Positions 7,607 through 59,996 of a stretch of 64,000 nt of DNA are shown here, in pieces. Every line of letters starts with the position of its first letter. Within the stretch, counting starts at the first letter, position 1. Origin of the DNA: a virus (Duplodnaviria; Caudoviricetes); IMG/VR virus record IMGVR_UViG_3300006143_000333, positions 1 through 64,000 of that record; one strand, given 5' to 3'. The notes under the pieces were generated by a model, which was given only the letters and a program-made list of their open reading frames with translations, searched no databases and was not told the DNA's origin. Made by a program: the position numbers and the translations under genes.

Positions 7607-8142
7607 TATTGTTGTAGCGGAATATGATTATTACACCTTAGATCAGGCAAGAAAAATATTTGAAATAAGGAAGAAAAACAAAAATAGACTGTAAACTATG
7701 GAAAATTATATAGTTGTGATTGCCATGATTGTAATGCCAGTATTATTTGTTTTACATTGGATTGTGTTTGGATATTAAGGAGGAATAGAGATGATTACAT
7801 GTATATTTTGTAGTTGGAATGAATTTGATGAATACAAATTAGATGAAAAATATAACCTTGTGGATTTTGGAGAAGATGAAAAACGTCCCGGATTTAAGTG
7901 GCTATGTGATATGGAAAAGGATGTTAGTGTTTATGTAAGATAGATTTGTATTTCGTAAAGTGAGGTAATATCATGAAAAAAAGATTAGTAAATTTATACA
8001 AGGAAATTGAATTTTTATTGAATCATGCTCCGATTGAAGACGATTGTACTGATGAAGAAAATGAAATGTATGCGGATATGGCTAATCTGAAAAATAGTAT
8101 GGAAAATGCAGGGTATGATATTTAAAGGATTAAAGATAAATC

Positions 8143-8508
8143 GTGTATTTCATTGGTAGATTAGAGGATAATGAAATGAAAAACTTAAATATGAAAGCGG
8201 CAGTAAAAAGATATAATGGTATAATGGAATTGATTGGATATGAACATAATACTATAGAGACAAAATTTTCAGAGAATACAGAAGGTTGGAACATTCGAGA
8301 TATGGTTGCAGAATGTGATTATGTACTTTCATGTTATTATGAAGATGGACATTGCAACGCTGAAATGAGATGTTCAGAAGATGCAGAAGAAAGAAAAATG
8401 TGGAAGTCAGAAACAGGAAAGTTAAAGAGATTTATTGAAGCATACAAACCATTTATTGATGATGTGAAGTGTGTGTCAGGACATTGCAGCCAATTTGATA
8501 ATAAATAA
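8143..8508 (+). CDS. Hypothetical protein bracketed by boundary sites 8137 and 8514
   Basis: ORF track; likely start at MKNLNMK after GAGG. Confidence 0.6.
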   Translation: MYFIGRLEDNEMKNLNMKAAVKRYNGIMELIGYEHNTIETKFSENTEGWNIRDMVAECDYVLSCYYEDGHCNAEMRCSEDAEERKMWKSETGKLKRFIEAYKPFIDDVKCVSGHCSQFDNK

Positions 8509-8806
8509 GGCAATGAAACTACTGTTTTTGTGGTGCTGTACAGTAACAAGAATATAACAATGGCTCCTGATTGGTGGATGGATTAGCCAGTTATATGAAG
8601 GAAGAAGGAAAGGTTACAGTAAACGGAGTTTGACGAACGGCCACAAAACCTTATTTAAAGCCTTAAATCAGCGCATATGCAATATGTATGTGCGTTGCAT
8701 TAAGTCCTTAAATAAAGTAAATAAACGGCATAGAAAGAGAAGTAATAAGCAAGTGACGAGAGAAAATGTTACTTGCTTTTATTATTGGGAAAATGGAGGG
8801 CAGATT

Positions 8807-9038
8807 ATGAGTAAAAACGACTATATCAGAAAATCAGCAAAAAAAATACCATTGGTGCAAATATTATTCTGTCATGCGCCCCGTTTCCATCGAAACACAT
8901 CCTAAAGATGGCATGATGGATTTAATCAACTATGACACCAGAACGGAAGTAAACGGGCGTATGGTATGGGCAGAAGTGTATTATAATAGGGAATTGTCAC
9001 AGAAGGAAATGGAAGATTTTGAGATGATCAGAGGATAG
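8807..9038 (+). pseudogene. DarA-related (defence against restriction, C-terminal-like) small protein, frameshifted in an A8 tract
   Basis: MSKNDYIRKSAKK, then in the shifted frame YHWCKYYSVMRPVSIETHPKDG...VYYNRELSQKEMEDFEM*; A7 at 8839-8846 would restore the frame. Confidence 0.55.
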
Positions 9039-9050
9039 GAGGCTATTGTA

Positions 9051-9734: not shown

Positions 9735-9837
9735 TTTGACAATGAAAGAATCGTTTTATGTGTATGAAATAAGTATGAATAATTCTTGACATATGCGTAT
9801 AAAGTGTGTATAATCCATATATAAGGAGGAAACACTA

Positions 9838-10483: not shown

Positions 10484-11094
10484 GTTTAATTGAATAAGAT
10501 TTTATAACCAGTCAGAAGGCATTAGCGGAAATATTCGTTAGTGCCTTTTATAGTGGTTATAAACGCCGAATAAATGGAGAAATAGAGAGTGGAAAGGATG
10601 GTTGATTATGAAACGAAAGACTTACAATAATGTTGTGAAAGCAACAAAAATGATTCAGAAAAAGGGGTATAGCCTTGATGAAGCTAATGAGATGGCTATT
10701 AGACTTTTTGATGAAAATACAAAAGAGATGAATAGTATTGAATTTTATATTGATAAGATTCAGGAAAAAATCATTACAGTAGCAGAAAGAATTGAAATAG
10801 GGAAAAGGAATCATCAAATAATCTCTATTTGCTTAAAGGATTATTATAATAGAGAAATAATTGGATTTTTTAAACATGAAGATGAGATTCCAAAGGAAAT
10901 TTTATCAAAGCCATCAGGTGGTGATTGGGATAGAGGTTTTGGACATTTAACTATTACAGTGAAATAAATATAAAACAGTCTTGAAACAATGGTTTTATTG
11001 GCAAATCAGTTTTATGATTTTCATAAAACGGTTGTAAATTAAAATAAATAGTTGTTTTTGTTCTTAAATATGGTATAATTGGAGGTGATAAAGA

Positions 11095-13066: not shown

Positions 13067-13178
13067 AAAAGTATTCCAGAAGGAAACAACTGGATAGTGG
13101 GTAAGGTTCGTACCCATTACACCCTAAAAAGGCTGTATAAATGGCAAAAATGCCAATAAATTAATGATTTTAAGTGGA
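13067..13178 (+). other. Orphan homolog of the tnpB 3' end (omegaRNA-like segment)
   Basis: Aligns to 34867-34986: AAAAGTA, GGATAG(T/A)GGGT, AGGTT, ATAAATGG(C/T)A(A/G)AAATGCCAAT, TTTTAAGTGGA. Confidence 0.6.
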
Positions 13179-13472
13179 GAAATGGAGAAAAAATTATGGA
13201 AAAGAAATATACAATAAAATCTGTTAGCGATGAGGGAGTTTATTATCTTGTGAACGGATGGAATAAATGTAAAACTTTTTGGTTTTCTGAAGAAAGCGTT
13301 TTGAAAGATGTGGAAAATGCTAAACGGTTTTTCTTTAATAAACCATCACAGGCAAAGGCAAGTCTTACAAAACTTTTGAAGGTTATGGAAGATTATAGGA
13401 ATGATATTTTTGAGGTAGTAGAGTTTTAGTCAATGAAAACACAATTCTAAGTAAAGAAAGAGAGAAAATAAA

Positions 13473-14273
13473 ATGATTAGAAGAGAAGATATTATTCAGG
13501 AACTTACAAACAGAGATTATAAAGTAGAAGCGCACACAAGCATTAAAAACGGTGTAGAATTTGACGGAATCCGCTTTATGAATGATGACGGGATCTGTCC
13601 TGTAATCTACACAGATGAAATCATAGCTGATTCTGAATCACTTTCTGAAGCGGTTGAAAAGGCAATAGATATCTACAATAATGCTGATATTATGGATTTT
13701 AATAAAGATAACTTGCTTGATTCTGACTTTATTATGGGAAACCTTTATATTGGAATACAGAAGACAAGCACAGAAAATATTGTAAGGTCAGATACGGATT
13801 TTGAATGTATTGAGAAGTATCTATATGTAAAAATGAATGAAAATGCTTCTTTTAAGCTAACATATGGATTGTTGGAAACATTAAAGATCAGTCAAGAGGA
13901 AGCATGGAAAGCAGCGGAAATTATTACTTTTGCAAAGACTGAGATTGTATCTATGTCGGAAAAATTGTCTGAATTAATGGGACAGGAAATTGAAGAAATG
14001 GAAGGTGTTCCAATTCAGTACATAGTTACTAATACTATGAATTTTAGAGGAGCGTCCGCAATTCTGGATGGAAAAGCATTAAAGAAGTTGGCAGAGAGAT
14101 TAAGTGTACAAAGATTTTATGTATTACCAAGTTCTATTCATGAAATGATTATTATTCCTGATGATGGAAAATGTAATATTGAAGAATTAAGTAGGATGGT
14201 ACAGGAAGTAAATCAGACACAGGTAGAACCAGAAGAAAGATTAACGGATCAGGCATATATTATTGAGGTCTGA
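13473..14273 (+). CDS. DUF5688-family protein
   Basis: GASAIL...FYVLPSSIHEMIIIP...MVQEVN...EERLTD. Confidence 0.75.
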   Translation: MIRREDIIQELTNRDYKVEAHTSIKNGVEFDGIRFMNDDGICPVIYTDEIIADSESLSEAVEKAIDIYNNADIMDFNKDNLLDSDFIMGNLYIGIQKTSTENIVRSDTDFECIEKYLYVKMNENASFKLTYGLLETLKISQEEAWKAAEIITFAKTEIVSMSEKLSELMGQEIEEMEGVPIQYIVTNTMNFRGASAILDGKALKKLAERLSVQRFYVLPSSIHEMIIIPDDGKCNIEELSRMVQEVNQTQVEPEERLTDQAYIIEV

Positions 14274-14802
14274 AAATCAGGATTTTATCAGAGAAAGAGA
14301 GGTATTATTTATGTTTGACACTAAAGTTACTACAAGTTATGCAAATGGAACGATTTTTCAAATGGATGCAAATGACGCATTAAATTTTTTAGTAGGGTTA
14401 TCAATTACTGTTATTAACACCGTAAGAGATACCATTGAGGAAGAAAATAAATTTGGTGATAAGGTTACAAAGAGTTGTGATCATGATGTTATGCATCTGA
14501 TTGAGCATTACAATTCGGGTATACCAGAAGCGGTTTATTCTTGTATTCTTCAAACAAATGCAGATATTTTATTGAAATTTGTGCAGGATGTTGTCTTGAA
14601 TGAGACTACAAGAGGATTGTATCTTTTTTATCATAAGTCGAACTATAGAAATGGCGCAGCTCCTTACGATCTTGTTATTAAAGCTCTTGAAGACGTGCAT
14701 CAGTATTACATGGTGTACGGAAATGATAATTATAAAAGAAACAAGAGCAATTATTTTAATAGGTATAATGAGGAATTTATGGAATTGATAAATAGGCAAT
14801 AG
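14263..14802 (+). CDS. Hypothetical protein between boundary sites 14272 and 14800
   Basis: Likely start at MFDTKV (14311); stop codon forms the left arm of site 14800. Confidence 0.6.
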   Translation: MRSENQDFIREREVLFMFDTKVTTSYANGTIFQMDANDALNFLVGLSITVINTVRDTIEEENKFGDKVTKSCDHDVMHLIEHYNSGIPEAVYSCILQTNADILLKFVQDVVLNETTRGLYLFYHKSNYRNGAAPYDLVIKALEDVHQYYMVYGNDNYKRNKSNYFNRYNEEFMELINRQ

Positions 14803-15278
14803 ACTCGGAATTTCATCCAGACAGAACGGAGGACATTAAAAATGAGTAATTTTGAGAAATCTGCAAGAAAAATTGTTGAAAAACACGGATGCACATTTAT
14901 TAAAATGGTTGGTGAATGTAGGGTTTTGTGGAAAAATAAATACGGATATGAATCTATAGACGATATATTTGTCTTAAATAATATGTGTGATAGTGCTTGG
15001 GAATTTTGGAGCAATTATAATCCAGTATGATTTAGTATAAAGCACTTGAAATCGTTTTTTAGAAAGAAAATGGAGGATATTAATATGAAGACAAAAAGAT
15101 TAACGGAGATCGCTAAAAAGGTTTATTTTTCAGGATCAGGTCATATAGATTGGAATGAAGTTGAAGCAGAATATGGATTATCAAAAATGGAACTCAATCA
15201 TGTAATAAGTATAATCAGAAATTGGAACAGAAGATAGCGGTTGAAACTCGTATTTCAAGACAGGAAGGATAGGGAAAT

Positions 15279-15722: not shown

Positions 15723-15990
15723 TTGGAGGAATCAAATGAGCAAAGATATTTCAACAGAATACACAAAAGAAAAAAATGAAAAATGTGGAAGAAAAGGATA
15801 TTGTGGCTTTAAGAGAGAAAAAGTAACAGTTATAAGCCCTAAAGAATACGGAATGTTTTTACAAAAAAGGAGACATTGAGTTAATATGGTTGATGAAATT
15901 CGCATTTCAACCGTTAAAAATATAATGAAAAAAATAGAAAAGTATTTGGAGAAATATAATCCAGATACTTTTTATTATGGAGGAAAATAT

Positions 15991-17586: not shown

Positions 17587-17661
17587 CAAGCAATGAGATG
17601 TGAGCAATGAAATGTACCTTTTAAGACAATAAAATAGAAAAAGAAACAGAGAGGAAATAAT

Positions 17662-18275: not shown

Positions 18276-18851
18276 GCGGAGCGATAGATTGTTGTATCTT
18301 AAATCATTGAATCTTGCGAGAGAGTGGATGTTAGCTAGAAAATATACTCTGCGTAGCGGTGTTGTAAATTATAAATCATCAGACAAATTTTGTTCTGGTG
18401 ATTTTTTGATGGGAGAATAAAAAATGAGCAATAATAAAGAAACATATACTATAAAAGAAAGATTTGAGTGTTTAAATAAGAAAATGGTAATTGTTAAAGT
18501 TGATAATAAGGCTTGCTGTGTAATGATGCAAGAAGAGCATGATAAGATTATGTATGCGTATAAGAAAAATCAAAGGCAAAAATAGAAAATATATTGAAAA
18601 ATGTAGAAAATTAGCTTAAAATAGAAAATGGAGGATGTAGTAAATATGATTATATTTATTTTGTTAATAGTTTTAGCAATTATTATTGTTGCGAGTAGTT
18701 CAAAAGAAAGAAAAGTTATGAGTGATGTTAATCACATTGCACGGGATAATGAGAAGGTTATGTGGAAAGAAATTGAAAAAACAATGAGAGATGGAAAAAG
18801 TGATAAAAAAGTAACTGGATAAACTTGTTTTTTAATACATTGGAGGTTTAT

Positions 18852-19889
18852 ATGAAAATATATGAAAGAAAATCATTCCCACGAACAGCAAGAGATTTAA
18901 AAGTGATGTATGAAAAAGGAAATTTATCTTTTGATAATGCAGTTCAAAGGTCTTTTGTATGGAAAAATACGGCTAAAGATAATCGAATGAGTATGTTGAT
19001 TGATAGTATGATTAGAGGACTTCCAGTACCTCCTATGTATTGTAATTGTATATTTGAAGATATTAAAAATAAAACTTATGACTTTTTGGATGGTAAACAA
19101 CGAGTTACAACCATCGTTAAATTTTTGAAAGATGAATTTCCACTAGTAAATATTCCCACTTTTGAAGACGAAGAAGGAAATGAACAGGACTTTAATGATT
19201 TGGTATATTCTCAATTACCAGAAGATGTTCAAGACACTATAAAGACATATAGTTTAACAGTCTATTATTATGAGAATATGGATCAGGAAGATGCGGAGGA
19301 AATGTTCCGTAGGTTAAATAATGGGAAATCATTGACTGCGATCGAGTTGACTAGAGCTAATGCGATTTCTGGAGAGAAAATCCGTAAGATTGGCAATCAT
19401 AATTTATTTAATATTGCTATGTCTGAAAAATCTTTAGCTTCTTATGCAAATGAGGATGTTGTAATTAAGACATGGATTCTGTTATACAGTGATAAGAAGT
19501 CTTTTGAGACGAGATATGTACGTCCTGTGCTTAAAGATACTGTAATTACTGATGAACAGGTTGATGAGATAAATAAGATATATGATTTGTTGTTGGATCT
19601 ATATGAGAAATTGGCTGATAAAAAGCAGACAAAGATTATTAAGAAAATGTTCAATAAAACAAATTTGATATCATTAGTTTCGGTATTTAAAGAGGGGAAA
19701 GATAAAGAAATTTGTATTGATGAAATGGAAGAATGGATGGTTCGTTTTTATGATACTGGAACAAAAGAAATGTCTTTGAATGATGAATATAATGAAATTG
19801 TAAAAGGAAGAATTGCCGTTACTGAAAATGCGGTTGTGTCAAGAAAGAATATTCTATTGAATAATTTTAAAGAATTTATAAAAGCATAG
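18852..19889 (+). CDS. DUF262 (ParB/GmrS-like) domain protein
   Basis: VQRSFVW, LIDSMIRGLPVPP, DGKQR, FRRLNNG. Confidence 0.85.
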   Translation: MKIYERKSFPRTARDLKVMYEKGNLSFDNAVQRSFVWKNTAKDNRMSMLIDSMIRGLPVPPMYCNCIFEDIKNKTYDFLDGKQRVTTIVKFLKDEFPLVNIPTFEDEEGNEQDFNDLVYSQLPEDVQDTIKTYSLTVYYYENMDQEDAEEMFRRLNNGKSLTAIELTRANAISGEKIRKIGNHNLFNIAMSEKSLASYANEDVVIKTWILLYSDKKSFETRYVRPVLKDTVITDEQVDEINKIYDLLLDLYEKLADKKQTKIIKKMFNKTNLISLVSVFKEGKDKEICIDEMEEWMVRFYDTGTKEMSLNDEYNEIVKGRIAVTENAVVSRKNILLNNFKEFIKA

Positions 19890-20570
19890 ATATAAAAGGA
19901 TTATTTTATTGGGGATTGGAGGATAAGATATGGAATGGAAGGATTTAAGTGATAAAGCAAAAGGAATTTTGGAATGGGTAGAAAATCCATATACAAAAAG
20001 TCGAGAGACAATAGAAATTAAAATTGGAGAAGTTTTTTATAGAAAATGTCCTAAACTTTGTGGAGATTTTGGAGAGCCATTGGGTGATGTAAATATTTTA
20101 GTGACTAAGGAATTATATCAAGAAGTATTGTGTTATGTAACAGAATCAGAAGATATACTATATAAACAATTAGCTGATGGTATAGTTTTTAGATTGAAAG
20201 ATGGCGTGGAAATTTAAGTCTTGAAATGATTGATTTATTGGGAAAATATATTTGATAATAGCGAATAAAAGGAGAATGAAATGGATTTAGTACATGTAAT
20301 TGTTGTATATAATGATGAAGGTAGACTGGAAGATGCAATTGATTTCATAGAAGATAATTTTTCTAAAATTAAGGTTAAAGATTTAAATAAAGCATTGGAT
20401 TGGGCTGATAAAGATCCAAAAGATTACAAGGGGAAATATAACAAAATGAAAGCAATATTGAACTATTTAAGATATGAATATATGAAATAATAGTTTCAAG
20501 TAGAAAATTCGCTTGACCTTACAACTTATAAGTTGTAAAATGAATATAACAAAAGAGAAAGAAGGTCAAA

Positions 20571-21746: not shown

Positions 21747-22143
21747 TATGGAAAAATAAAGAAAGGATTGGTATAAGTATGAAATATACAGTTAGAGCAA
21801 GTAAAAGCGGTTATGCTGAAATTGAGGCGAATAGCGAAGAAGAAGCATTGGAAAAAGCTTGGTGTGCAGATTATAACTGGGAAGAAGATGTATATGATAT
21901 GGAAATTGTAGACGAGTAGGACATATCTTATACATATATGCGGGCGGTAGTTGTCAAAGGCTATCGCCTGATTACAGAAAGCGTTGATATGAAACGCTTT
22001 CTCTTGTCTTATACTTAACAAGTCAAAGAAAGTAGTGTATAATATATCCAATGAAATTAGATATTTATCGTGCATGGCACAAACAACGTATTGACACAAT
22101 TCTTTTCGAGTAATATAATATTGCAAAGGAAGGAGTTGATATT

Positions 22144-27456: not shown

Positions 27457-27484
27457 TTTCATTGGAGAAAGAGAGGAAAATATT

Positions 27485-28150: not shown

Positions 28151-28182
28151 TGGATGAATACTTGATTTTATTGGAGGTTTTA

Positions 28183-39538: not shown

Positions 39539-39781
39539 TTATGGTTTCATCTGTTTTAATAAAAGCTGCATTTGAGGATCGTCAGATGTCAATATTTCAA
39601 TTGGTGAACATTCTAGTTCTTTGCAAATTGACTCAAGTATTTCAAATTTTATAGATGTTGATGTCCCTTTATATATATTATCAATAGTAGGATAGGTAAC
39701 ACCGATACGTTTTGCCAGCTCATATCGAGTCATGCCTTTTTCTTTTAATTTGTTTTGTATAAATATTTTCATATATACCAA
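39539..39781 (-). CDS. XRE/Cro-like HTH regulator
   Basis: MTRYELAKRIGVTYPTI...LESICKELEC. Confidence 0.85.
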   Translation of the reverse strand: MVYMKIFIQNKLKEKGMTRYELAKRIGVTYPTIDNIYKGTSTSIKFEILESICKELECSPIEILTSDDPQMQLLLKQMKP

Positions 39782-45333: not shown

Positions 45334-45658
45334 AATTATGGATATTAGTAAAGCTGAAAAAATTGGTAAAGTTATGAATAATATTAATCGTTGCAAAAGT
45401 TTTCTTGGTTGCTTGAAAGACAGGGGTTATCCTGACAGCTTTGAAATCTATTATAGAGATTATAAAGCTTGTGATCTTGAGGAAGATGTATTGGATATTA
45501 TTATTGAACACTACGAAAACGAATTGGAGAGATATAACGAAGAGCTGAAAAAACTTTAAGCATTGAAACTAACATTTCAAGTCAATATAGGATCAATATA
45601 TGGTATGTGAGTAATTAACTAATAACAATATATAGCGCAATAAAAAGGAGAGCAAATT

Positions 45659-49480: not shown

Positions 49481-50807
49481 GTTATTGAGAAAGGGAAAAT
49501 ATGAAAAACAAAATAGAAGAAGCAAAAGATTTAAAGTATCGGTTAGAAAATAATAAAAAGATAGTCCAATATTGTCTTGGAAAACAGGAAGATAATGACG
49601 GCGGATTTATTCATAATCCCAATAATGATAAACATAATTTTGTGTTTTCTACCACACAACATCATTCATCAAAACCAATATATTTAGATGCTTACTATGG
49701 ATATTATGGCAATAGTAATGTATCTATGTTTAATGATGAATTTTACATTACATGTATGGTAGAAGCAATAAATAAATTTCTTCCTCAACTTAGGGAAGAA
49801 ACAGAGAAAATTATGGGGCAGAAATACAATGAAGCACTATTAGAGGCGAAAGGTGAAGCTGAGAAGATTCTTAAAACAATTGAAGATCTAGGTTTGAATT
49901 AGGCAATGAAAAATTCATTTCAATTATTACAGAAGGAGAGGTCATGATTAATATAGAGAAAACAGATAGTATAGAACAAGAATATTTACAGTGTTCAAGC
50001 TGTTTAAAATGTAATGATGATTTAAATATGTTTAAAATCATTGTTGGTAAAAATATGAGACAAACAACAACTGTGAAATTATGCGAAGAATGTATGCGTG
50101 ATTTATTGGAAGATTTAAAAAGATTGGAAATTAACGGTCAGATATAAGTGGCAATGAATATTTGATTTTGTGGTGTGAGGTGATAGGATGACAGAGAATG
50201 AAGCAATCGCAAGAATGAGGTACAGAATAGATACAGCAACAGAAGCAATTGGAAAAGGTTCTGATGGTAAGGCTTATGAGGATATGGAAATCGCAATTAA
50301 AGCACTTGAAGAAATTCAACAGTACAGAGTAATTGGGACAGTTGAGGAATGTCGAGAGGCACGGGAAAGGCAGATTGGGAAGAACCCCATAATTTTAAGT
50401 GAGCAATCTGTAGAATCAGAGAAAAAATTATATATAGCAAAGTATTTCAAATGTCCTACTTGCGGAAACACATCTACATATTTCGGAGGACTACCTAATA
50501 ATTGTCATAATTGTGGTCAGAGGTTGGAGAGTGATGCCACATGACCTACCAAAGAGCAGACCAAAAACATCCATTAATGGGGCTTGATAATAAAATCTGT
50601 AAAAATCCTGCCTATTGGTGTAGGTTACATCAAGTCTGGTTGTCTGATGATGATGTAAAGAAGAAACAATGTAAATGTAAACAGACTTTTGACATGGTTG
50701 GTACATATTGTTGCGGAAATTTAGTCAAGAAGTCAATAAAATGAAACTTTCAAGTAAGAAAAGAGAAATATATATATCACAAAAATGAAAAGGAGAGATG
50801 ATAAGTT

Positions 50808-51578
50808 ATGTGTAATTTTAAGAGTGGAATTATTTTGAAGAACAAGGTGGTTTTAGCACCAGAAGGAAATGAAAGCCATTCAGATTTATTGAAAAATCTT
50901 GAAATTGAAGATACTCACATGAATGCATCTAAAACATTTGTAAGAGCAGAGTTAATTCCTAAAAATAATGATAAAACGACCAATGTAAAAGACTGGAGAT
51001 ATAAAGTCGATCAGGATATTGTGCCTGATTGGTATGAAAAAGACCCAGAGAGATACGAACAAGATTTTAGAAATGCAGTTGAAGAATATATGAATGAGTG
51101 GAGAAAACAGTTAAAATTCATTTGTGGGCATTATTGGACAAGTGCTCAGGATGGGAATCGTACATATTATTTTATGAATGGGATTCTTAAAAAGTCAGAC
51201 TTTGGTAAAACAAATAATTATGCAGAATCTTATGTGCGGAGAGATCTTATTAATAGTGAGTTGGCAGAGGATTTAAAGAAAGAATTTGGAGATAAACTTG
51301 TTCCGATTTCTCTTGATTTGACTTCTATGGATGGATTTAAAGATTATGGAAGTGTTGAAGGTGATATTTTAGCAATCCCAAATATTCAGTTGCTTATGAA
51401 GTTTGGTGAAAGTATTCCATTGATTGATAATTGGTATTGGCTTGCTAATCCTAATCAGACACCGAAGAGAAACGACGCCCGCTATGTTCTGTGCGTTAGC
51501 TCCGATGGCGATGTGTGCTACGGCGATTGCGGCTGGAGTGGCCGGGGCGTGCGTCCGTTTTTCATCCTTCAATCTTAA
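50808..51578 (+). CDS. DGR target protein with C-terminal variable (C-type lectin-like, DUF6273-like) domain
   Basis: WYWLANP...VR...GVRPFF C-terminus. Confidence 0.9.
   Translation: MCNFKSGIILKNKVVLAPEGNESHSDLLKNLEIEDTHMNASKTFVRAELIPKNNDKTTNVKDWRYKVDQDIVPDWYEKDPERYEQDFRNAVEEYMNEWRKQLKFICGHYWTSAQDGNRTYYFMNGILKKSDFGKTNNYAESYVRRDLINSELAEDLKKEFGDKLVPISLDLTSMDGFKDYGSVEGDILAIPNIQLLMKFGESIPLIDNWYWLANPNQTPKRNDARYVLCVSSDGDVCYGDCGWSGRGVRPFFILQS
51477..51559 (+). repeat. DGR variable repeat VR1
   Basis: 83-nt ungapped alignment to TR; 18 mismatches, all at TR adenines. Confidence 0.97.
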
Positions 51579-51620
51579 ATCTTTGAATTTTGCAAAAAAC
51601 CATCGGGTAGCCAGTAATCA

Positions 51621-51638
51621 GGAATGCGTCAGCATTCC
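51621..51638 (+). other. DGR target-recognition-like hairpin
   Basis: GGAATGC-GTCA-GCATTCC downstream of VR1/IMH, nested in CATCGG/CCGATG. Confidence 0.65.
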
Positions 51639-51679
51639 GTAGGTAGCCGATGAGCGACTGAAAGGAGCGGGGAAAACCA

Positions 51680-52048
51680 GTGAGCGAAGCGAAACTGGAT
51701 GTTATTGTAAAAGCAATAAATCTTATGGAATATACTATGACAATTACATCAAACCGAAAGAGGTATCCAGTTAAGCATTTAACATTGGTAAAACGCATCC
51801 AAAATCGCTGTATGGATATATATGAATATTTGCTTGATGCAAATAGGCTGAAATTGGATACTTCAAAATCGGAACGCCAAGAATTACAAACAAAAGCATT
51901 TTCATGTTGTGATAAGTTGTCTTGTTATGTGGAACTTTCTATGAAATTGAAATTAATTGGAAGTGATACAGTAGGATATTGGCAGAAACAAATAAATGAT
52001 GTGAAATATATGAGTATTGCATGGCGTTCAAAAGATAAAGAGAGATAA
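51680..52048 (+). CDS. avd: Avd accessory variability determinant (four-helix bundle)
   Basis: 122-aa basic helical protein, YPVK..LVKRIQ..AN...W pattern, between VR and TR. Confidence 0.85.
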   Translation: MSEAKLDVIVKAINLMEYTMTITSNRKRYPVKHLTLVKRIQNRCMDIYEYLLDANRLKLDTSKSERQELQTKAFSCCDKLSCYVELSMKLKLIGSDTVGYWQKQINDVKYMSIAWRSKDKER

Positions 52049-52069
52049 TTTTAGGTTGTTTGTTGTATG

Positions 52070-52152
52070 ACCCACTATGTTCAGTACGTTAACTCCAATG
52101 GCAATGTGAACTACAACGATTGCAACTGGAATGACAAAGGCGTGCGTCCGTT
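52070..52152 (+). repeat. DGR template repeat TR
   Basis: AAC/AAT-rich template with 25 adenines; diverges from VR after GTGCGTCCGTT (IMH*). Confidence 0.97.
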
Positions 52153-52271
52153 CTGGATCGGAAGACGAATGAAAGTAAGAGAAACACTGAAATTAGAGTC
52201 CCGATATCAAAAGAATAAACAACCTTTCCTGATTCAAAAATGTCAGGATAAATACAAAGGAACAAAATACT

Positions 52272-53315
52272 ATGATAGAAGATAAAACAGATTTTGAAAA
52301 AGTAGTAGATTTCGGTAATTTATATCAAGCATATTTAAAATCTAAATCAGGTAAAGGTTTTTCAAAAAGCAGTCAAAAATTCCAAGTATTAGCTCTTGAT
52401 GGAATTCATCAAATAAAGAGAAGATTAGAAACTAAAACATATCAAGTATCAAAATACAATGAATTTATAATATATGAACCGAAAGAGAGAGTCATTAAAG
52501 CATGTTCGTTTGTAGATAAAATTGTACAGCATAGTTTGTGTGATAATGTACTGATTCCAAGATTGAATAAAGAGTTTATTCAAACAAATTATGCTGGACA
52601 GATTGGCAAAGGTACATTGTATGGATTGGATTGCTTAAAAGCTCAGATGTATCTTGCATATCAGAAGTATGGATATGATTGTTGGATTATAAAAGCTGAT
52701 GTTAGCAAGTTCTTTTACAATATCAATCACGATATTTTGAAGGATATTTTGAAATATTTTATAGAAAATAAAGAAGTGTATTGGCTGTGTGAGAAGTTTA
52801 TTGATAGTACTGAGGGAGTAGGACTTCCATTAGGTAATCAGGTTAGTCAAGTATTTGCACTTTTATATTTATCAGTGTTAGATCACTTTATCACAGGAGA
52901 ACTTGGAGTTAAATATTATGGTAGATATATGGATGATTTTTATTTGATAGTACAAAATAAAGAATATGCGAAATGGTGTTTAGCAGCTATTTATGAGTTT
53001 GTGTATTCATTAGGTCTTGAATTAAACAGTAAGACTCAGGTCATTCCTTTTAAAAATGGAATCAAATTTTGTGGTTTTCATACATATGTGACTTCAGATG
53101 GTAAAGTAATCCGAAAGCTGAAGAACGAAAATAAACGTGCCGCTAAAAAGAAATTTAAGAAAATGGTTGGATTAGTGAGGTGTGGAAAACTTAGCAAAGA
53201 GAAATTTTATGAGAGTTACAATGCTTGGAAAAATCATATATCACATGGCAATTGTGTGAAATTGGGATATGAGATGGATAGATATATAGAAAAATTATTT
53301 ATAGGAGAAAAATGA
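52272..53315 (+). CDS. DGR reverse transcriptase
   Basis: EPKER, KADVSKFF, GLPLGNQVSQ (DGR-type SQ), RYMDDF. Confidence 0.95.
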   Translation: MIEDKTDFEKVVDFGNLYQAYLKSKSGKGFSKSSQKFQVLALDGIHQIKRRLETKTYQVSKYNEFIIYEPKERVIKACSFVDKIVQHSLCDNVLIPRLNKEFIQTNYAGQIGKGTLYGLDCLKAQMYLAYQKYGYDCWIIKADVSKFFYNINHDILKDILKYFIENKEVYWLCEKFIDSTEGVGLPLGNQVSQVFALLYLSVLDHFITGELGVKYYGRYMDDFYLIVQNKEYAKWCLAAIYEFVYSLGLELNSKTQVIPFKNGIKFCGFHTYVTSDGKVIRKLKNENKRAAKKKFKKMVGLVRCGKLSKEKFYESYNAWKNHISHGNCVKLGYEMDRYIEKLFIGEK

Positions 53316-53910
53316 TGGAATATATTTTGTTTTCATTTATATTGGCTGGAACACCTGCTTTATATACTGGATATTGTAATAAATTGAGAGACTTAATTCG
53401 ATTAATTTTCATCATAACATTTATCGTAATCTATTATATTAATAAATGGGAAACCGCAGATATTAATGTGGGATTATTCGTTTGTTGGTGTGCAGTATGG
53501 ACGATATTTTGGGATAATTTATATAAGAAACTTAAAAGGAAATGAAACACGAGTTTTAAGGAGGAAAATTATGAAATCAGTAGAAGAAAGAATTACAAAT
53601 AAGATTGAAGAAAGTGAAGATGGAGTGTTGATGAAGTTCCTTGGAGCTAAAAATGTTGAAAGACTGAAAAAGGAAGTTACAGATGCAATTATTCAACAGG
53701 TAATCAAAGATTTACATGATAGTTGTGATTATATAATTAGCCCAGACGATATAGTGCAAGACATTATTGATGATATTATAGATTCTGCTAATAAGAATAT
53801 TAGACCGAAAGTAGAAAAGCTGTTGTATAAGAAAGCTATGGAAAAATTAGGATTAGAGGAATAGTTTTAAAATTTCCGTTTTAAGGCTATTTTAGAGAAA
53901 GGATAATAAT

Positions 53911-54714: not shown

Positions 54715-55536
54715 ATATGATACAAGACTTAACCGCAAATAGAGATTTTCAAAACGATAGAGATTTGAGTATTTTATCAAATTTAATAAGACAGAGTTCA
54801 ACTCAGGATGATTTAACATCTCTATATGATGAAGTCGTATTAACAGGAACAACTTTTGATCGTGACCATAAACGTTATATTTTGGACTATGAAAGCGAAC
54901 AAAAGAATATGTGTGATTGCTGTGGTTCTCCAATTAGAATTCGACCTTGGGATTTTGAAGAAAACAAAACGCTATGTCCTGCGTGTGAAAAATGGTTAGA
55001 AGAATCACAAAACAGGAAATATGATGGAGAACTGCTTGAAGAAATAATAGATGATTCGTGGTCTATAAGAATTGTAAAGCCCTGGGATATAAATGATTTT
55101 GAAAGAGAAAATGCAGTTGATAATGTATTATTGTGGGACTAGATAAAACGAAGGTTTCAAGTAAAAATGAGGTGGTAATTTGGAAAATATTTTAAGTAAA
55201 AATAATGACGGATCAATAGATGTCATGGACAGATATGGATTTACGGAATATACAGTTGCCAAGAATGAAAATGGTATAGTAGCTAGATTGGCAAATCAGT
55301 TATATGAATATGAGAATTTCTTTACAGAAAGGCTTAAAGATGTATTGATGAATTACTTTGATGTTCCATCTGACACATATGCGTATAATCTAACAAGACA
55401 TAAAACTGCTTTTTCTGAAGTAACCATATCTCTTGATGATTTTGAAGAATTTGATGAAGAAATCATTGATGATATTGTGAAGTATATCAAAGACAATATT
55501 TAGCCAATAGAAGAAACATTTTAACTGGATGGAGGT

Positions 55537-55905
55537 GTGTTCGTGTATCAGAATTGTTGTAAAAAATGTGGAAGTATCTCATTACATACAGAAGTAAAAG
55601 GTAATAACACTGGTTTATATTGTGATGATTGTGGAGCCTGGGTGAAGTGGTTAGGTAAGGATGAACTTAGAGCGTTTGAACATAGTCAGATAGAGAGTAA
55701 CAAGTTATCTAATAAAAACATAACTGCCAGACTAAAAGAGTTTGTTGAATTTCTTGAAAAGAAAATTGATTCTGAATATGATAATTTACCAAATTCAAAA
55801 GATGATGCAATTAGAAAGAATGTTTGCTGTGCAATTATGGAACGAGATAAAAATGCAATCATCAACATTATAAACGGGCATGATTTTAATTATATAGAAG
55901 AATAA
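55537..55905 (+). CDS. Zinc-ribbon protein
   Basis: CKKC...CDDC. Confidence 0.6.
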   Translation: MFVYQNCCKKCGSISLHTEVKGNNTGLYCDDCGAWVKWLGKDELRAFEHSQIESNKLSNKNITARLKEFVEFLEKKIDSEYDNLPNSKDDAIRKNVCCAIMERDKNAIINIINGHDFNYIEE

Positions 55906-55906
55906 A

Positions 55907-56011
55907 ATAAGCACTCTGATAACTTTGGCGAGCGAGCAGAGTGCTTATCAATACAAAACGGAAATCCGCTTTGATAAGTCTTAGTATATCAATTATTCAT
56001 GACCTATTCAA
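55907..56011 (-). ncRNA. Putative antisense RNA element E
   Basis: Minus-strand TTGAAT-17-TATACT; 12-bp hairpin 55907-55948 with TTTGGCG loop. Confidence 0.6.
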
Positions 56012-56252
56012 GTCGGTAATTCCACAAATTAAAAATTGAATACAGGTGGTGATATTTATATAGAAACTTTTTATCATGGAACATCTGATACTTTAGATGT
56101 GAACAAAATAATTAGCTGATAAAGCAGTAGTAATAGGACAAATTTAGTCTTGAAATAAATCTTTCATAGAAAAAGAAATAGTAAATATAAGACGAAAGGA
56201 GTAAGAGGTTTGCTGTCCAGCATTAAAGACTGTCTTTACTCTAAAAGGTATA

Positions 56253-57107
56253 TTGGAAACAAATAAAATTTATTGTGGTAATTGTATTGATATTCTTAAA
56301 TCTTTCCCTAATAAAAGCGTGAATTGTTGCATAACAAGCCCACCTTACTATGGATTAAGAGATTATGGCGTAAGCGGACAAATCGGAAACGAAGATACAC
56401 TAGAACAATACATAGAAAATTTGGTAAATGTATTTGAACAAGTAAAAAGGATTTTAAAGGACGATGGAGTTCTTTGGTTAAATCTTGGTGATAGTTGGCT
56501 TGGAACTGGTGGAGAGGGAAGATATAAAAGAAATCAAAATATGAAGGCATCAGGAATAAAATGCAAAGACTTAATAGGTATTCCGTGGATGGCAGCATTT
56601 GCATTGAGAGAGGCTGGTTGGTATCTTCGTCAAGATATAATTTGGGCAAAAGGAAATCCAATGCCTGAAAGTGTTAAAGATAGATGTACAAAATCTCATG
56701 AATACATATTTTTGCTTTCCAAATCAAGAAAATATTATTTTGATTATGAGTCTATAAAAGAACCAGCAAAATATCCTAATGATAATCGTGGAAGCAGAAA
56801 TGATAGTCGTAGAGGAACAAAAATGAATAGCATAAGTGGTGTCACAGGGGAAAAGCGCAATAAGCGTGATGTATGGAATGTAAATACAAAACCATGTAGA
56901 GAAGCACATTTTGCAACATTTCCAGATACACTGATTGAACCATGTGTATTAGCTGGTTGTCCTGAAGGTGGCATTATCTTAGACCCATTTATGGGAGCAG
57001 GAACAACGGGAATGGTCGCAAAAAGACATAATAGGAATTATGTTGGAATTGAATTAAATCCAGATTATGTTCAGATTGCAGAAAATAGAATAGAAAAGAA
57101 GTCTTAA
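56253..57107 (+). CDS. Orphan N4-cytosine/N6-adenine DNA methyltransferase (beta class)
   Basis: TSPPY, HFATFP, LDPFMGAGTT; bracketed by sites 56151 and 57105. Confidence 0.9.
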   Translation: METNKIYCGNCIDILKSFPNKSVNCCITSPPYYGLRDYGVSGQIGNEDTLEQYIENLVNVFEQVKRILKDDGVLWLNLGDSWLGTGGEGRYKRNQNMKASGIKCKDLIGIPWMAAFALREAGWYLRQDIIWAKGNPMPESVKDRCTKSHEYIFLLSKSRKYYFDYESIKEPAKYPNDNRGSRNDSRRGTKMNSISGVTGEKRNKRDVWNVNTKPCREAHFATFPDTLIEPCVLAGCPEGGIILDPFMGAGTTGMVAKRHNRNYVGIELNPDYVQIAENRIEKKS

Positions 57108-57131
57108 AACCCACGTTTCAAAGGAGATAAG

Positions 57132-57920
57132 ATGAAATATTTTAATGTTCCACAATGTTATAAAGAGAAAATAGTAGTTATTATAGACGGTGCTTTTAAA
57201 GGAGTTATTGGTGTATTAACATCATTAGAAATGAGTTATTTAAGAGAAACAACTTGTAAAATTAATATAGACTACAGAAATACAATCACTGTCAATTATA
57301 ATCAAATTATTTCTTTGGATATATCTGTATTTGAAGATTGTGACATTGATATATCTAATGAAGATGGTACTTTTAAAAATGTATTTGAAATTATAAAATA
57401 TGGAGAAAAAAATATTATGCCAACAAAATCATTTGATTTAGAACTTATGGGAATTAAGAATCTTCATTTCTATATTGCCAAACCAGAAATAGTAGATGTA
57501 AATATCGTTGTGCCAGGCAAGGTTGTAGAAGTAGTTTTTGCAGATGGGACAAAAGAGAAATCTGTATGTAGAGAACCTGATACATTTAGTTTAGAATCCG
57601 CAATTTCAATTTGCATTTCTAAGAAAATTATGGGTGGATCTTCTGCTTATAATAATGCAGTTAAGCATGGTATGAAGGTTTATGAGGACAAGCAGAAGAA
57701 AGAACTTGCTAAAAAAGAAGAACAGGAACGCATTGAGAAGAAACGTACTAAGAGACTTGCTTATAAGGAGCGTAGAGCTGCTAAGAGGGCTGAGGAAGAG
57801 AAACGGAGAAAGGCTAGAGAACGTGAAGAGCAGATTGCGATTCAGACGGAGGCATATCTGAGAGTGATGAAAGAAATAGGTAGTATTCAGTACAATCCAG
57901 CAAAAGAAGTGTTTAGTTAA
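57132..57920 (+). CDS. Hypothetical phage protein
   Basis: 262-aa ORF with charged C-terminal helix. Confidence 0.6.
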   Translation: MKYFNVPQCYKEKIVVIIDGAFKGVIGVLTSLEMSYLRETTCKINIDYRNTITVNYNQIISLDISVFEDCDIDISNEDGTFKNVFEIIKYGEKNIMPTKSFDLELMGIKNLHFYIAKPEIVDVNIVVPGKVVEVVFADGTKEKSVCREPDTFSLESAISICISKKIMGGSSAYNNAVKHGMKVYEDKQKKELAKKEEQERIEKKRTKRLAYKERRAAKRAEEEKRRKAREREEQIAIQTEAYLRVMKEIGSIQYNPAKEVFS

Positions 57921-59996
57921 TTTATTTTATCACTGTCTCTCGTCAATATTATTTATATTTGGCGAGAGATTTTATGAAGGGAAGGAATATATATTTTTAT
58001 GACTAACGAAGAAATAATTAGAAAGAGAGTAGCAAGGGAAATATTATCCATGATTGAGACTATTTGTTTCAGCGAAGAATTTAAAGATTTTAGAATCGGA
58101 CAAGGAAGTAATGGGACAAGGGATTTAATTATTGAACGCATAAAGAATACATATGACATTGGATGAAATCTGCGATTTATTGGGAGGTTAATGGATTTGA
58201 AGGAATGTAGATTCTGTAAAGATAGAACAAGATGTGAATATGCTATGAATGATTATCCTGGCTCTGGCGATCTTTGGAAAGCAAAGAAATATTGTGAAAA
58301 AATTCAGAGACAAGAAGTAGAAACTATTAGCGAAAATGACAATAAAGTATTTAAAGAAAAAGTAGAAAAATTTCTTTCACAAGGATATAAAATCTCTTCT
58401 ACCAATTGTGGTTATGCTGGAGAAGTTGGTGGAAATGTATACGATTGCGAATACTGGATGGCGATTTTGATTAAGGAGTGATTGAATATGAAAGACATAA
58501 ATATTATTATCAAAGACGCTTTTGGAAGAGAAATCAAAACTAACACAGATCAGATTGAGGAAGATGTTCTGCGAATGAGAATAGGATTGGAACCACAGGA
58601 ACAGGATGGTGACTAATGCGTAGAAGAATCACAGGCAATATTTATACTGGTCTTGGGAATCCATCGCCAGTAATTTTTGACAACGAATGGACAGATAATA
58701 AAAAATTTAATGATGCTGTAAAGTTGTTCTTTGAAGATATTCTAAATTTATTAAAAGACGAAACTATTAATAGTGTTGGTGGTTTTGATTTCAAAATAGA
58801 ATTAGAAAATAACAGTTTTAAAATCTTATTTGGTATTGAGCCATCATATATGTATGATTCATATATCTGCTATTGTTTTGATAGTGAAAAAGAGAATAGT
58901 TATATACATAAAGAACGGGCTTTTGGGTATTATGGTGCTGACATTAAAATTAAATCGAATAAAAGTTATAAGAGATGTGGTAAGGAATTTAGTGAATGTA
59001 TGGATAAGTATTATGAAAATTTGATGAGGTGTTTAAGTGAATAATGGAATATTTGCAAAGTATACAGGAATTCCAATAATAGTTGTTCCTGATAGTAAAA
59101 AGCAAAATAGAACACATAGGAAAAAGAGAATTAACAAGAAATGGGCTAAAAGATATGGATATACAACATATAATTCCATTGAAGATGAACAGATCATTAC
59201 AATGAATGGAAGCATGTATGTGAATCCGAGAACTTATTATAAGCTAAAATCTCTTGAATTATATACTTAGAAATTCATTCTGTGTGGGAGGTGAATAATG
59301 AATTCAAAATATGAAAATATGTCTTTAAAAGAAATTATTAGACAGATAGAAAAGAAGGATAAAAGAATTGCTAAGTTGGAGAAAAAAGTTTCTGATATGA
59401 ATGACACCATCAGAACAATCGGTAATCAGAATCGTAAACTGAAAAGAAATAATGAAAGATATCAGGAACGATTAACAGAAGTTTTATATAAAGGTGAGAT
59501 TAAGAATTGCTCAACATGTAAAAATAATGTTAAATTTCCTCCTCCTCATACTTGTGATATTTGTACCAGTTTAGACCAGGAAGAAGAATATGAGATGTGG
59601 GAGGAAAGGATTGAGATTAATTGATGCAGATAATTTAACAAAAGAAACAGAAAAATCTATGCATGACAATCCTCATAAAAATAGACAAATTTCTCAAAAT
59701 CATTTAACAGAACATATTCATTTTTTGTCATTAATTGGAAGACAATCAACAGTAACAGATGATAGAATTACGAAAGCATTGGAGCTTGTATGGAATTATG
59801 GTCAAATTGATGGAGATAATCATAAGACATGGATTATTGATCAAATTGTTAGAATTTTGTGTGGTAGTAATGAGGAATATAAAAAGTGGGTTGATAAATA
59901 TGAAGAACCTTTAGAAGATGGTGATTATTACAGTTGGAATCAAGGTATCAATTCTTAAATCTTGCATTTCATTGGCAAAAAAACGGAGGTTAGAGA

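Follow-up and report, generated by a model that had tools for sequence, protein, structure and literature searches.

Known site-bounded gene modules

The closest described system is that of the dif modules of Acinetobacter Rep_3 plasmids, in which gene modules are bounded by Xer-type (pdif) sites with a 6-bp spacer, sites recombine if their spacers match exactly or almost so, two exchanges at matching sites replace a module, and the cargo consists of accessory genes including toxin-antitoxin pairs (PMC13141974). Both the cargo and the exchange proposed below for a phage genome are likened to these modules. The phage system differs in its carrier (a 130-220 kb phage of Lachnospiraceae rather than a small plasmid), in having ~50-60 sites with all spacers different and an order conserved across genomes, and in phage-encoded XerS/XerH-like candidate recombinases, known here from sequence alone. 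Because the phage arms are symmetric (one half-site type), unlike the XerC/XerD arms of dif modules, there is no alternation of C/D orientation. An earlier note on this DNA had proposed an undescribed system; that goes too far in one respect, since the Acinetobacter modules already show exchange at identical-spacer Xer sites (PMC13141974), while the phage carrier, the symmetric arms and the ~50-60 ordered “addresses” set the present sites apart from those modules.

Single-recombinase Xer systems, as proposed here, are XerH/difH (Helicobacter, Campylobacter) and XerS/difSL (streptococci) (PMC5241119, PMC3325230, PMC2965235). In Xer systems the strands are exchanged at either border of the 6-bp central region (PMC2965235), and in each arm XerH reads the inner 5 bp specifically, hardly contacting the central region (PMC5241119). 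The phage arms resemble Helicobacter difH, TGAAAA-N6-TTTTCA (PMC3325230), with half-sites 2 bp closer than in difH. A dif site is a single chromosomal site for chromosome-dimer resolution under FtsK control, whereas the phage has ~60 sites.

Two phage systems are also similar. The PeSLs of T4-type phages are repeated intergenic motifs in variable regions that mark exchange points of unrelated genes; they are promoter-plus-terminator units acting through homologous recombination (PMC2839356, PMC4122927), whereas our sites are ~22 bp long, lack a promoter or hairpin and each have a unique centre. The stoperators of Cluster A mycobacteriophages are likewise dozens of short gene-end sites in a temperate phage, often overlapping stop codons, but they are asymmetric (13-14 bp), bound by a monomeric repressor, in one orientation and without a variable centre (PMC9283540, PMC6550527).

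Integrons (IntI, attI, attC) resemble the phage system in pairing a tyrosine recombinase with arrays of one-gene cassettes that lack promoters, with a recombination site after each one. The integron attC is 57-141 bp long, is recognised as a folded single strand and travels with its own cassette, with no slot identity. In the phage, by contrast, a slot keeps its spacer while a cassette brings its half-arms with it, and there is no attI or Pc. In engineered cassette exchange with heterospecific lox or FRT sites, sites that share their arms but differ in spacer are orthogonal, and two different sites around a cassette permit exchange without deletion; these are laboratory designs with 2-3 variants, whereas the phage set would be a natural one of ~60 sites.

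Counts, anatomy and placement of the sites

The window (the whole stretch analysed, 64,000 nucleotides, positions 1 to 64,000 of IMG/VR record IMGVR_UViG_3300006143_000333) contains 42 matches to T(G/A)AA(A/T)-N6-(A/T)TT(C/T)A, the core that the earlier note saw recurring at gene junctions; dinucleotide shuffles gave 13.5 ± 3.4, and 0 of 100 reached 42. About 6-8 of the 42 probably arose by chance (627, 3463, 18911, 42502, 55773, 61009, 61791). Of 71 matches on the whole 128,958-bp contig, 53 are non-coding, although non-coding DNA makes up 16% of the contig as called by the crude home-made gene caller that underlies this split. The density test suggested earlier came out as predicted, with 2.5 matches per kb in non-coding and 0.17 per kb in coding DNA (15-fold); the latter is chance level (Markov simulation expectation, 4.8 non-coding and 21 coding matches). 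A gapped-palindrome scan, an unbiased check with no preset motif, ranked TGAAA-N6-TTTCA top in this genome (G0) and in relatives G1 and G2, and TAAAA-N6-TTTTA top in G4.

An iterated weight matrix (PWM) yielded 60 sites over 8.1-120.5 kb of the contig, 37 of them in the window. Sites and the candidate recombinase are listed below in window coordinates, sites without strand, with PWM scores and occurrences of the same spacer in relatives; G1 is a provirus contig and G8 a scaffold from a Lachnospiraceae isolate. The phage family appears to be temperate or episomal.

8137-8152, site, spacer cgtgta, PWM 19.6; same spacer, collinear, in G1 and G8
9743-9758, site, gaatcg, 20.3; G1, G8; G1 homology begins exactly there; precedes a 12/12 sigma-70-like promoter at 9786
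10982-10997, site, caatgg, 18.9; G1, G8
13157-13172, site, taatga, 22.7; syntenic G1 interval
13434-13449, site, acacaa, 15.7; G1
14272-14287, site with degenerate left arm, tcagga, 14.9; syntenic G1 interval
15242-15257, site, ctcgta, 23.1; G1, L136; both flanks unrelated
15894-15909, site, ttcgca, 18.4; G1, G3, G8; flanks unrelated; precedes the likely true start (15991) of a methyltransferase gene
17608-17623, site, tgtacc, 16.2; syntenic G1 interval
19893-19908, site, ggatta, 16.1; G1
20222-20237, site, tgattg, 20.0; G8, and G1 with 1 mismatch
20483-20498, site, taatag, 17.0; G1, G2, G3, L189; flanks all differ
25462-25477, site with right arm TTTGA, taatcg, 20.0; no orthologue found; upstream boundary of the recombinase-holding segment
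25807-26835, + strand, XerS/XerH-like simple tyrosine recombinase, candidate enzyme; Pfam Phage_integrase, 1.6e-22
27446-27461, site, gattga, 21.7; spacer common to 14 loci
28155-28170, site, acttga, 19.0; G3, G8, L120, L122; homology to G1 and G3 runs no further than the right arm
29359-29374, site, gtctga, 20.7; G2, G8, L120, L122
30143-30158, site, ttcgat, 19.5; G1, G2, Roseburia scaffold
31046-31061, site, tccggt, 21.4; G1, G8, L120
32208-32223, site, tgttgc, 22.4; G1, G8
34965-34980, site, tgctgt, 21.3; G1, G2, G8, L124
35166-35181, site, ggctgg, 16.4; G1, G3, G8, L126; flanks all differ
36788-36803, site, gttcag, 14.7; G8; of the two flanks G1 shares just the left and G3 just the right
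37374-37389, site, gtgaaa, 16.0; G1, G8; G3 homology stops at the right arm
37561-37576, site, taacta, 15.1; G1, G8
39534-39549, site, ttatgg, 15.3; left flank 100% identical with G1 over 250 bp, identity stopping within the right arm
44202-44217, site, gccgca, 22.5; G1, G8
45564-45579, site, ctaaca, 22.3; G1, G3, G8; flanks unrelated
49907-49922, site, aattca, 17.5; syntenic G1 interval
50737-50752, site, tgaaac, 18.2; G1 keeps site and both flanks; upstream of the DGR block
53543-53558, site, cacgag, 23.9; G8, absent in G1
53868-53883, site, tttccg, 16.4; G1
55144-55159, site, cgaagg, 15.5; G8
55508-55523, site with left arm TAGAA, gaaaca, 15.9; G8
56151-56166, site, taaatc, 18.4; G8
57105-57120, site, cccacg, 23.5; G8; stop codon TAA forms arm positions 0-2
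58164-58179, site, tctgcg, 17.1; G1, G8
59956-59971, site, cttgca, 19.9; G1 (relaxed arms), G8

The site at 39534 is real, contrary to the claim that 37.6-44.2 kb is empty of sites. Other parts of the original description fared better: arm symmetry does extend outwards, reaching ~8 bp, (C/A)(A/C)(A/T)T(G/A)AA(A/T), and the left and right outer arms of a site can each be of either type, with no covariation (independence test, p = 0.11). The half-sites lie one helical turn apart. All spacers were said to be different, and 58/58 intergenic spacers do differ from each other, but uniqueness by itself is not significant (~0.9 identical pairs expected by chance). The spacers carry high information content, and their GC content of 46.8% exceeds the 30.4% of the remaining intergenic DNA (p = 1e-10). 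The upstream stop codon often falls within the site, as the earlier note had it (site offset from the stop, -10 to +22 nt), and the sites are anchored on this codon and not on the next start, which lies 5 to 391 nt away. In 5/5 genomes the sites are restricted to the non-structural arm.

Lying on the transcribed strand, past one stop codon and ahead of the following ribosome-binding site, the motif would suit an RNA-level hairpin or processing signal in a polycistronic transcript. Such a 5-bp A/U stem would have very little stability, however, and no compensatory, hairpin-type covariation of the arms was found at any variable pair among 58 sites: positions 1 and 14 are A..C in 17/58 (29%), and the variants at positions 4 and 11 break pairing in 18/18 cases (U.U or A.A). 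The RNA-level reading is disfavoured, and we hold it to be extremely improbable.

The sites might also be operators of a dimeric phage regulator (e.g., a stoperator-like repressor blocking transcription at many gene ends), with the mosaic boundaries a by-product of short-homology recombination at these conserved linkers, as has been proposed for PeSLs. Their dyad symmetry and helical phasing fit this reading, as do their placement just past stop codons and, where the gap is long, upstream of sigma-70-like promoters, their absence outside the non-structural arm of each of the five genomes and the apparent lifestyle of the family; stoperators and PeSLs are precedents (PMC9283540, PMC2839356). 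It does not account for GC-rich, unique spacers, no promoter hexamers or terminator hairpin were found within or adjoining the sites, and a search of the genome for a candidate regulator found none.

Spacers and flanks in related genomes

Under strict criteria, G0 and G1 share 38 identical-spacer pairs vs 1.9 expected (Spearman rho 1.0), and both flanks are unrelated in 27 of them; relaxed arm criteria add 12 further G1 partners, for 50/60 G0 sites. With G8 there are 57 such pairs vs 5 expected, including a collinear chain of 50, and both flanks are unrelated in 33, just 22.6 kb of DNA being alignable. Because orthologous pairs were picked by spacer identity, part of the spacer conservation follows from that choice; neither the number of pairs nor their collinearity does. 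Spacer gattga occurs at 14 loci, whose flanks fall into 7 types on the left and 6 on the right, and spacer tttaac has at least 15 different downstream neighbours. Synteny was kept across 1 site junction and broken across 46, compared with 44 kept and 128 broken at other junctions, counts that are summed over four relatives and are not independent. Many homology blocks between relatives also stop at gene borders without a site, and one gene occupies different slots in G0 and G1; ordinary mosaic recombination therefore acts here too.

Arm mismatches in orthologous pairs are as frequent as independence predicts, even at positions 4 and 11 next to the spacer, and they depend on the flank. Left arms mismatch in 4/45 cases with the flank conserved vs 57/144 with it replaced (p = 9e-5), right arms in 2/30 vs 44/141 (p = 0.006), and G8 shows the pattern again (p = 0.026 and 0.014). 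Since variable arm bases track the genes beside them and nothing but the spacer is common, the exchange points lie at the spacer edges, as in Xer-type tyrosine recombination. The prediction that breakpoints of gene gain and loss in relatives sit at the N6 spacer is thus borne out, and the crossover-site reading is supported by collinear identical spacers, unrelated flanks and arms inherited with the flank.

Regulator operators would leave unaccounted for this segregation of arm variants with their flanks around a common 6-bp spacer, and the unbroken identity between orthologous sites, often only 12-20 bp, is short for homologous recombination; we consider that explanation unlikely. Template switching, in which a site-bound protein stalls a fork and the nascent end anneals to the same spacer on another copy, would put junctions exactly at short common sequences and would require spacer identity for re-annealing. 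Yet a 6-bp spacer with the few arm bases that do not vary offers hardly anything to prime on, and the Xer-like site geometry and Xer-like recombinases would go unexplained, making this highly improbable.

Candidate recombinases and a proposed addressed cassette exchange

The protein encoded at 25807-26835 has XerS as its best NCBIfam model (full-length, 128 bits, far below the cut-off of 267 bits) and XerH (5JJV) as its best PDB relative; the catalytic motifs are present, RS.E, HMLRH and RHASL..YY lining up with XerH. An integron-integrase model gave a weak partial match only, and a genome search found no serine recombinase. The earlier choice of this gene holds insofar as it encodes an intact XerS/XerH-like simple tyrosine recombinase, which we take as the prime candidate enzyme for the sites; the gene is, however, poorly conserved. 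Identity between the syntenic enzymes of G0 and G1 is 33%, with those of G2 and G3 even further away, and the arm consensus is the same across relatives despite this divergence. Each relative encodes 2-4 Xer-like recombinases, one in the same cassette-arm slot. That no single recombinase is well conserved among relatives counts against the reading favoured here.

The enzyme behind the same recombination logic could instead come from the host (XerC/XerD of the chromosome or a further host Xer), as it does for mobile elements that exploit Xer: the phage enzymes are too diverged to resemble a dedicated, co-evolving enzyme, and host XerCD moves dif modules (PMC13141974). However, symmetric arms suit one recombinase, not a XerC/XerD pair, and the relatives carry Xer-like recombinases of their own. 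The density of the strict motif on the phage scaffold is moreover ~100-fold that of the host chromosome, with 17/24 strict matches on this 190-kb scaffold of a 4.7-Mb genome and no standout host site. We judge a host driver distinctly unlikely.

The explanation we favour, and think fairly probable, is that these are heterospecific Xer-type crossover sites allowing registered cassette exchange among related phages. Each would be the core site of a simple Xer-type tyrosine recombinase, its two inverted binding arms (inner 5 bp sequence-specific, ~3 more bp weakly specific) surrounding a 6-bp crossover (central) region that differs at every site. Because strand exchange would require matching central regions, only same-numbered sites would recombine productively. 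The partner would be the same address on a related phage copy (a co-infecting phage, resident prophage or episome), neighbouring sites of one molecule would be unable to recombine together, and two exchanges would swap the 1-4 genes between two sites. With site order fixed, the non-structural arm would therefore be a series of ~50-60 addressed slots with reassorting contents. Recombinase binding, cleavage at the spacer edges, the requirement for spacer identity and the identity of the acting enzyme are what we infer from sequence comparison, and cassette exchange would leave the origin of the unrelated genes between given spacers unaccounted for. If this explanation is true, a large phage of gut bacteria would carry a built-in gene-cassette exchange system of ~60 sites.

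Palindromic sites at gene ends

The window makes up the first 64 kb of a virus contig (G0) of 128,958 bp, which has 31-32% GC and carries all genes up to ~124 kb on the + strand, as called with a home-made gene caller. Its products include DnaE, a DnaB-like helicase, primase, RecJ, a RecD2-like helicase, an NAD-ligase and NrdD. Small accessory genes form a long run that includes three GmrSD_N paralogues, Fic, MazF-like, HicAB and Thg1-like genes, along with radical-SAM and methyltransferase genes and a sigma-like factor. Features referred to below, or lying beside the sites, are as follows (contig numbering for the last two).

927-1385, +: HicA-like toxin (weak match) and HicB-like antitoxin pair, first genes of the + arm, just behind consensus sigma-70-like promoters at 474 and 872
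18825-19889, +: GmrSD_N (DUF262) paralogue
24176-25213, +: GmrSD_N paralogue
25807-26835, +: tyrosine recombinase, candidate enzyme acting on the sites
27485-28150, +: widely conserved neighbour gene; Pfam and PHROG scans gave no function
41803-42387, +: 194-aa sigma-70-like factor (PHROG sigma factor; Pfam regions 2 and 3 weak), conserved in four relatives (G1-G4)
42381-43805, +: GmrSD_N paralogue, the only one of the three, all in one phage arm, that is conserved across relatives
50496-53300, +: DGR block
64796-67402, +: complete phage-encoded P-type cation-transporting ATPase, 868 aa (L001 796-3402); the copy in G4 is 48% identical
123625-124842, end of the + arm: second, longer tyrosine recombinase, 405 aa (L003/L004), 73% identical in G3

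Among named phages, Clostridium phage Amboise is nearest (DnaE 50%); it does not carry the site motif, and megablast with 8 kb of G0 gave no matches among GenBank phages. IMG/VR contains many relatives closer than Amboise, 130-220 kb in size. A family-specific gene also has homologues in cultured Lachnospiraceae, on phage-sized scaffolds from Roseburia sp. 1XD42-69, Bacterium 1xD42-87 and Lacrimispora amygdalina. These scaffolds (G006:C112, G008:C133, L205) are 150-190 kb long, the size of the phage genome, which would fit a prophage kept as an episome, or a carrier state, better than insertion into the chromosome.

The pattern T(G/A)AA(A/T)-N6-(A/T)TT(C/T)A is matched 42 times in the window, compared with 13.5 ± 3.4 in shuffled sequence, and 71 times in the whole contig. 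The earlier note had placed the motif at gene junctions, and it is indeed denser outside coding sequence, with 53 of the 71 matches in the 16% of the contig that is non-ORF DNA (2.5 vs. 0.17 per kb). Simulation predicts 4.8 non-coding and 21 coding matches, and the coding matches are therefore attributed to chance. An iterated weight matrix recovers 60 sites between 8.1 and 120.5 kb of the contig. When all 5-N(0-10)-5 palindromes were ranked without reference to the motif, the site palindrome came first in G0, G1 and G2, and TAAAA-N6-TTTTA came first in G4. Sites occur only in the strongly skewed non-structural arm (five genomes), and in two host genomes the phage scaffold has ~100x the strict-motif density of the chromosome.

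Two matches stand apart. A perfect TTGAAA-agcatc-TTTCAA at 23665-23680 lies within an ORF and has both flanks conserved in G1 and G8; it may be a functional site or else a chance match retained through coding constraint. The match at 22052-22067 (spacer ttagat) was missed by the weight matrix and has a collinear identical-spacer partner in G8.

Relative to the upstream stop codon, sites start at -10 to +22 nt, most commonly at -2 to +9, while the distance from site end to the next start codon ranges from 5 to 391 nt; the narrow offset from the stop and the wide one from the next start tie the site to gene ends. Where the gap behind a site is long, a sigma-70-like promoter lies downstream (e.g., site 9743, followed by a 12/12 promoter at 9786).

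Conservation is mirror-symmetric across ~22 bp, (C/A)(A/C)(A/T)T(G/A)AA(A/T)-N6-mirror, with the highest information content at positions 0-4 and 11-15 and weaker, symmetric signal at -3 to -1 and 16 to 18. No further conservation, including promoter hexamers, was found within 45 nt on either side. The spacer is fixed at 6 bp in 58/58 sites and carries ~0.1-0.3 bits per position, with a symmetric bias at its first and last bases; its GC content is 46.8%, compared with 30.4% in the remaining intergenic DNA (p = 1e-10). All 58 spacers differ, and the outer arm types mix freely between left and right under one consensus for both arms, both as the earlier note had proposed.

Base-pair covariation is missing from the mirrored variable positions. 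The choice of G/A at position 1 is independent of that of C/T at position 14 (p = 0.37), non-pairable A..C combinations occupy positions 1/14 in 17/58 sites, and all 18 variants at positions 4/11 are T.T or A.A. The lack of covariation implies that whatever recognises the sites has two-fold symmetry and reads duplex DNA instead of a hairpin, and an RNA hairpin or processing signal was rejected, with covariation at none of the variable pairs.

Several regulatory readings were also rejected. A promoter for the sigma-like factor at 41803-42387 was rejected on the symmetry of the site, the absence of a -35/-10 partner within 45 nt and the closeness of the site to the next start codon; this factor resides in a site-free block with MazF-like and GmrSD_N genes and probably drives a different gene class. 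The geometry of a class-II activator site would place the transcription start within coding sequence, and CRP/FNR, CcpA cre, Rex, ArgR and CodY boxes differ in spacing or orientation. Pfam and PHROG scans of ~45 proteins yielded no candidate helix-turn-helix regulator.

The arms vary across G4 (L109-L119) and a 42%-GC clade (L019-L084): in more distant clades they read TAAAA/TTTTA in place of TGAAA/TTTCA, and another clade has lost the outermost arm base (AGAAA/GTAAA...TTTCC). Deamination of methylated C in TTTCA could account for this symmetric G-to-A and C-to-T drift.

Spacers shared between unrelated genes

G0 and the related provirus contig G1 (DnaE 99%) are syntenic but share DNA only in patches, and a site is often the precise point where a block of homology ends. 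If just one flank is common to both, the site and its spacer remain with that flank. Statistics on the junctions cover four relatives and are not independent. When sites were grouped by spacer, the same 6-mers recurred in G0, G1, G2, G3 and further contigs, including places with no relatedness in either flank. A scan for isolated exact matches (k = 12-15) was swamped by chance matches in the AT-rich DNA, and a test of spacer pairs and their collinearity was used instead; the pairing of orthologues rests on strict anchors, since the loose site pattern gave too much noise.

G0 and G1 share 38 strict identical-spacer pairs where 1.9 are expected, and the order is fully collinear (rho = 1.0). Of these pairs, 27 have two unrelated flanks, 4 share only the left flank, 4 only the right, and 3 both. 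With degeneracy permitted in the outer arm bases, another 12 identical partners and 3-4 with one mismatch appear in the intervals where they would be expected. The isolate scaffold G8 (G008:C133, 177 kb) has 57 identical-spacer pairs with G0 (5.0 expected), 50 of which form a collinear chain, 33/50 with both flanks unrelated; only 22.6 kb of DNA is alignable between the two. Sites absent in G1 (53543, 55144-57105, 105929) are found in G8, and 25462 is the one site in the window for which neither G1 nor G8 has an orthologue with the same spacer. The DGR block at 50496-53300, among the few multi-gene stretches intact in G1 (91% identity), holds one site, 50737, conserved in both flanks.

Single addresses, as we call sites identified by their spacer, have diverse neighbours. 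Address gattga was found at 14 loci with 7 left and 6 right flank types, and in a more distant clade the tttaac site behind the homologue of 27485-28150 is followed by at least 15 different downstream genes. At tttaac loci, several unrelated ORFs read into the site and terminate at a TAA within the spacer.

The tttaac site also carries an insertion, an AT-rich promoter-like stretch plus a 77-aa ORF placed exactly after the fifth spacer base (locus L145, 3671-3975; likewise L135, L143, L152, L154, L157, L163 and L166). The insert is flanked by a 12-bp direct repeat, AAAGAAATTTAA, and the outcome is a left arm and spacer lacking the right arm, with a complete site behind the inserted ORF.

The earlier note's prediction that breakpoints fall in the N6 spacer was borne out: where a flank has been replaced, mismatch at the degenerate arm positions rises to the level of unrelated sites up to position 4 on the left and 11 on the right. 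Left-arm mismatches are 4/45 with the flank conserved and 57/144 with it replaced (p = 9e-5), and right-arm mismatches 2/30 and 44/141 (p = 0.006); the pattern was repeated in G8 (p = 0.026 and 0.014). Each arm thus belongs to its adjoining genes and the 6-bp centre alone is common, which places the joints at the spacer edges. These sequence products fit a putative strand exchange at the borders of the central region. Orthologous sites often share an unbroken identical stretch of only 12-20 bp, little for homologous recombination to work on. A selection-only model, in which breakpoints are random and intact sites survive, predicts that arms are co-inherited with the spacer, the opposite of what was observed. 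A hot spot of double-strand breaks by a homing endonuclease would convert both flanks along with the site, again the reverse of the pattern found.

Candidate enzymes and known systems

The site has the sequence form of a simple tyrosine-recombinase core site. Each of the five genomes encodes 2-4 proteins with a Phage_integrase domain. The recombinase at 25807-26835 (Pfam PF00589) lies in the cassette arm between addresses taatag and gattga, and the same slot holds a recombinase gene in G1, G2 and G3. Among NCBIfam models XerS matches it best (full length, 128 bits, short of the equivalog cut-off), and its closest solved relative is XerH, with RS.E, HMLRH and RHASL..YY motifs aligned; of the catalytic set R-K-H-R-H-Y, the residues checked (R, H, R, H and Y) are present. 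The match to the integron-integrase model is only partial (27.6 bits, cut-off 265). Recombinases are poorly conserved among relatives that share one arm consensus, and the true actor may be a host Xer or some other protein. The 405-aa recombinase at contig 123625-124842 probably serves in integration or maintenance instead of acting on the cassettes. Half-sites resemble those of Hin/Gin-type serine invertases, but no Resolvase domain was found in any of the five genomes.

Integron attC sites are imperfect palindromes of 57-141 bp that move with their cassette and are accompanied by IntI and attI. The phage sites differ in being ~22 bp long and in that the spacer remains with the slot when either flank changes. 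They lack the sigma-70 promoter and stem-loop terminator of PeSLs, having no conserved hexamers within 45 nt and no covariation. Stoperators are similarly placed at stop codons, but are asymmetric, 13-14 bp long, orientation-dependent and bound by an immunity repressor, whereas the phage site is dyad-symmetric and no repressor for it turned up.

Closer parallels come from Xer recombination. XerH reads the inner 5 bp of each difH arm specifically, contacts the backbone at the outer bases and hardly contacts the 6-bp central region, and the information peaks of the phage sites match these contacts (PMC5241119). The half-sites are 2 bp closer than in difH, TGAAAA-N6-TTTTCA (PMC3325230), at 16 bp end to end instead of 18. 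Chromosomal dif/difH is a single dimer-resolving site at the terminus, in contrast to ~60 sites on the phage and a host chromosome that is not enriched. The XerCD/dif system exchanges strands at the borders of the 6-bp central region (PMC2965235). Plasmid pdif sites of Acinetobacter recombine if their 6-bp spacers are identical or one base apart, and dif modules are replaced through two pdif recombination events (PMC13141974). In the phage genomes, flanks differ at sites with identical spacers, for which exchange between such sites is a candidate explanation. Unlike the Acinetobacter modules, the phage sites have symmetric arms rather than distinct XerC and XerD arms, do not alternate in C/D orientation, and form a long ordered set of unique spacers on a phage carrier. 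No account of a comparable array in phages came up in limited searches of the literature.

Proposed slot-by-slot exchange and phage mosaicism

An array of heterospecific Xer-type crossover sites is the simplest account of all these features together. With matching centres as the requirement, a site would exchange only with its equivalent in a related genome, and genes between two sites would be swapped with order kept and internal deletion avoided. We give slightly less than even weight to the full form of this proposal, in which one phage-encoded, single-subunit Xer-like recombinase acts on ~60 orthogonal sites to exchange slots among related phages and prophages with no intragenomic deletion. 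Ordinary mosaicism at gene borders is also at work, and the first entry of new genes into a slot lies outside the exchange model and is unexplained by it.

The usual explanation of phage mosaicism is illegitimate or relaxed homologous recombination, in itself rare, with selection acting afterwards. The array suggests a dedicated, site-directed mechanism, with ~50 six-base addresses kept in order between two genomes that have only ~17% alignable DNA. The idea is directly testable because cultured isolates (the Roseburia, Bacterium 1xD42-87 and L. amygdalina strains) harbour relatives, and the array would supply, ready for use, a set of orthogonal sites at which a small recombinase could act. 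It would also carry the exchange of modules at Xer sites beyond small Acinetobacter plasmids, into phages of Lachnospiraceae. If the proposal is true, the accessory genome would reassort as the segments of segmented viruses do. The cargo of the array comprises GmrSD-like, Fic, MazF-like and HicAB genes, a DGR and methyltransferases, and this reading, if right, would explain the fast turnover of defence, counter-defence and host-takeover genes in large gut phages.
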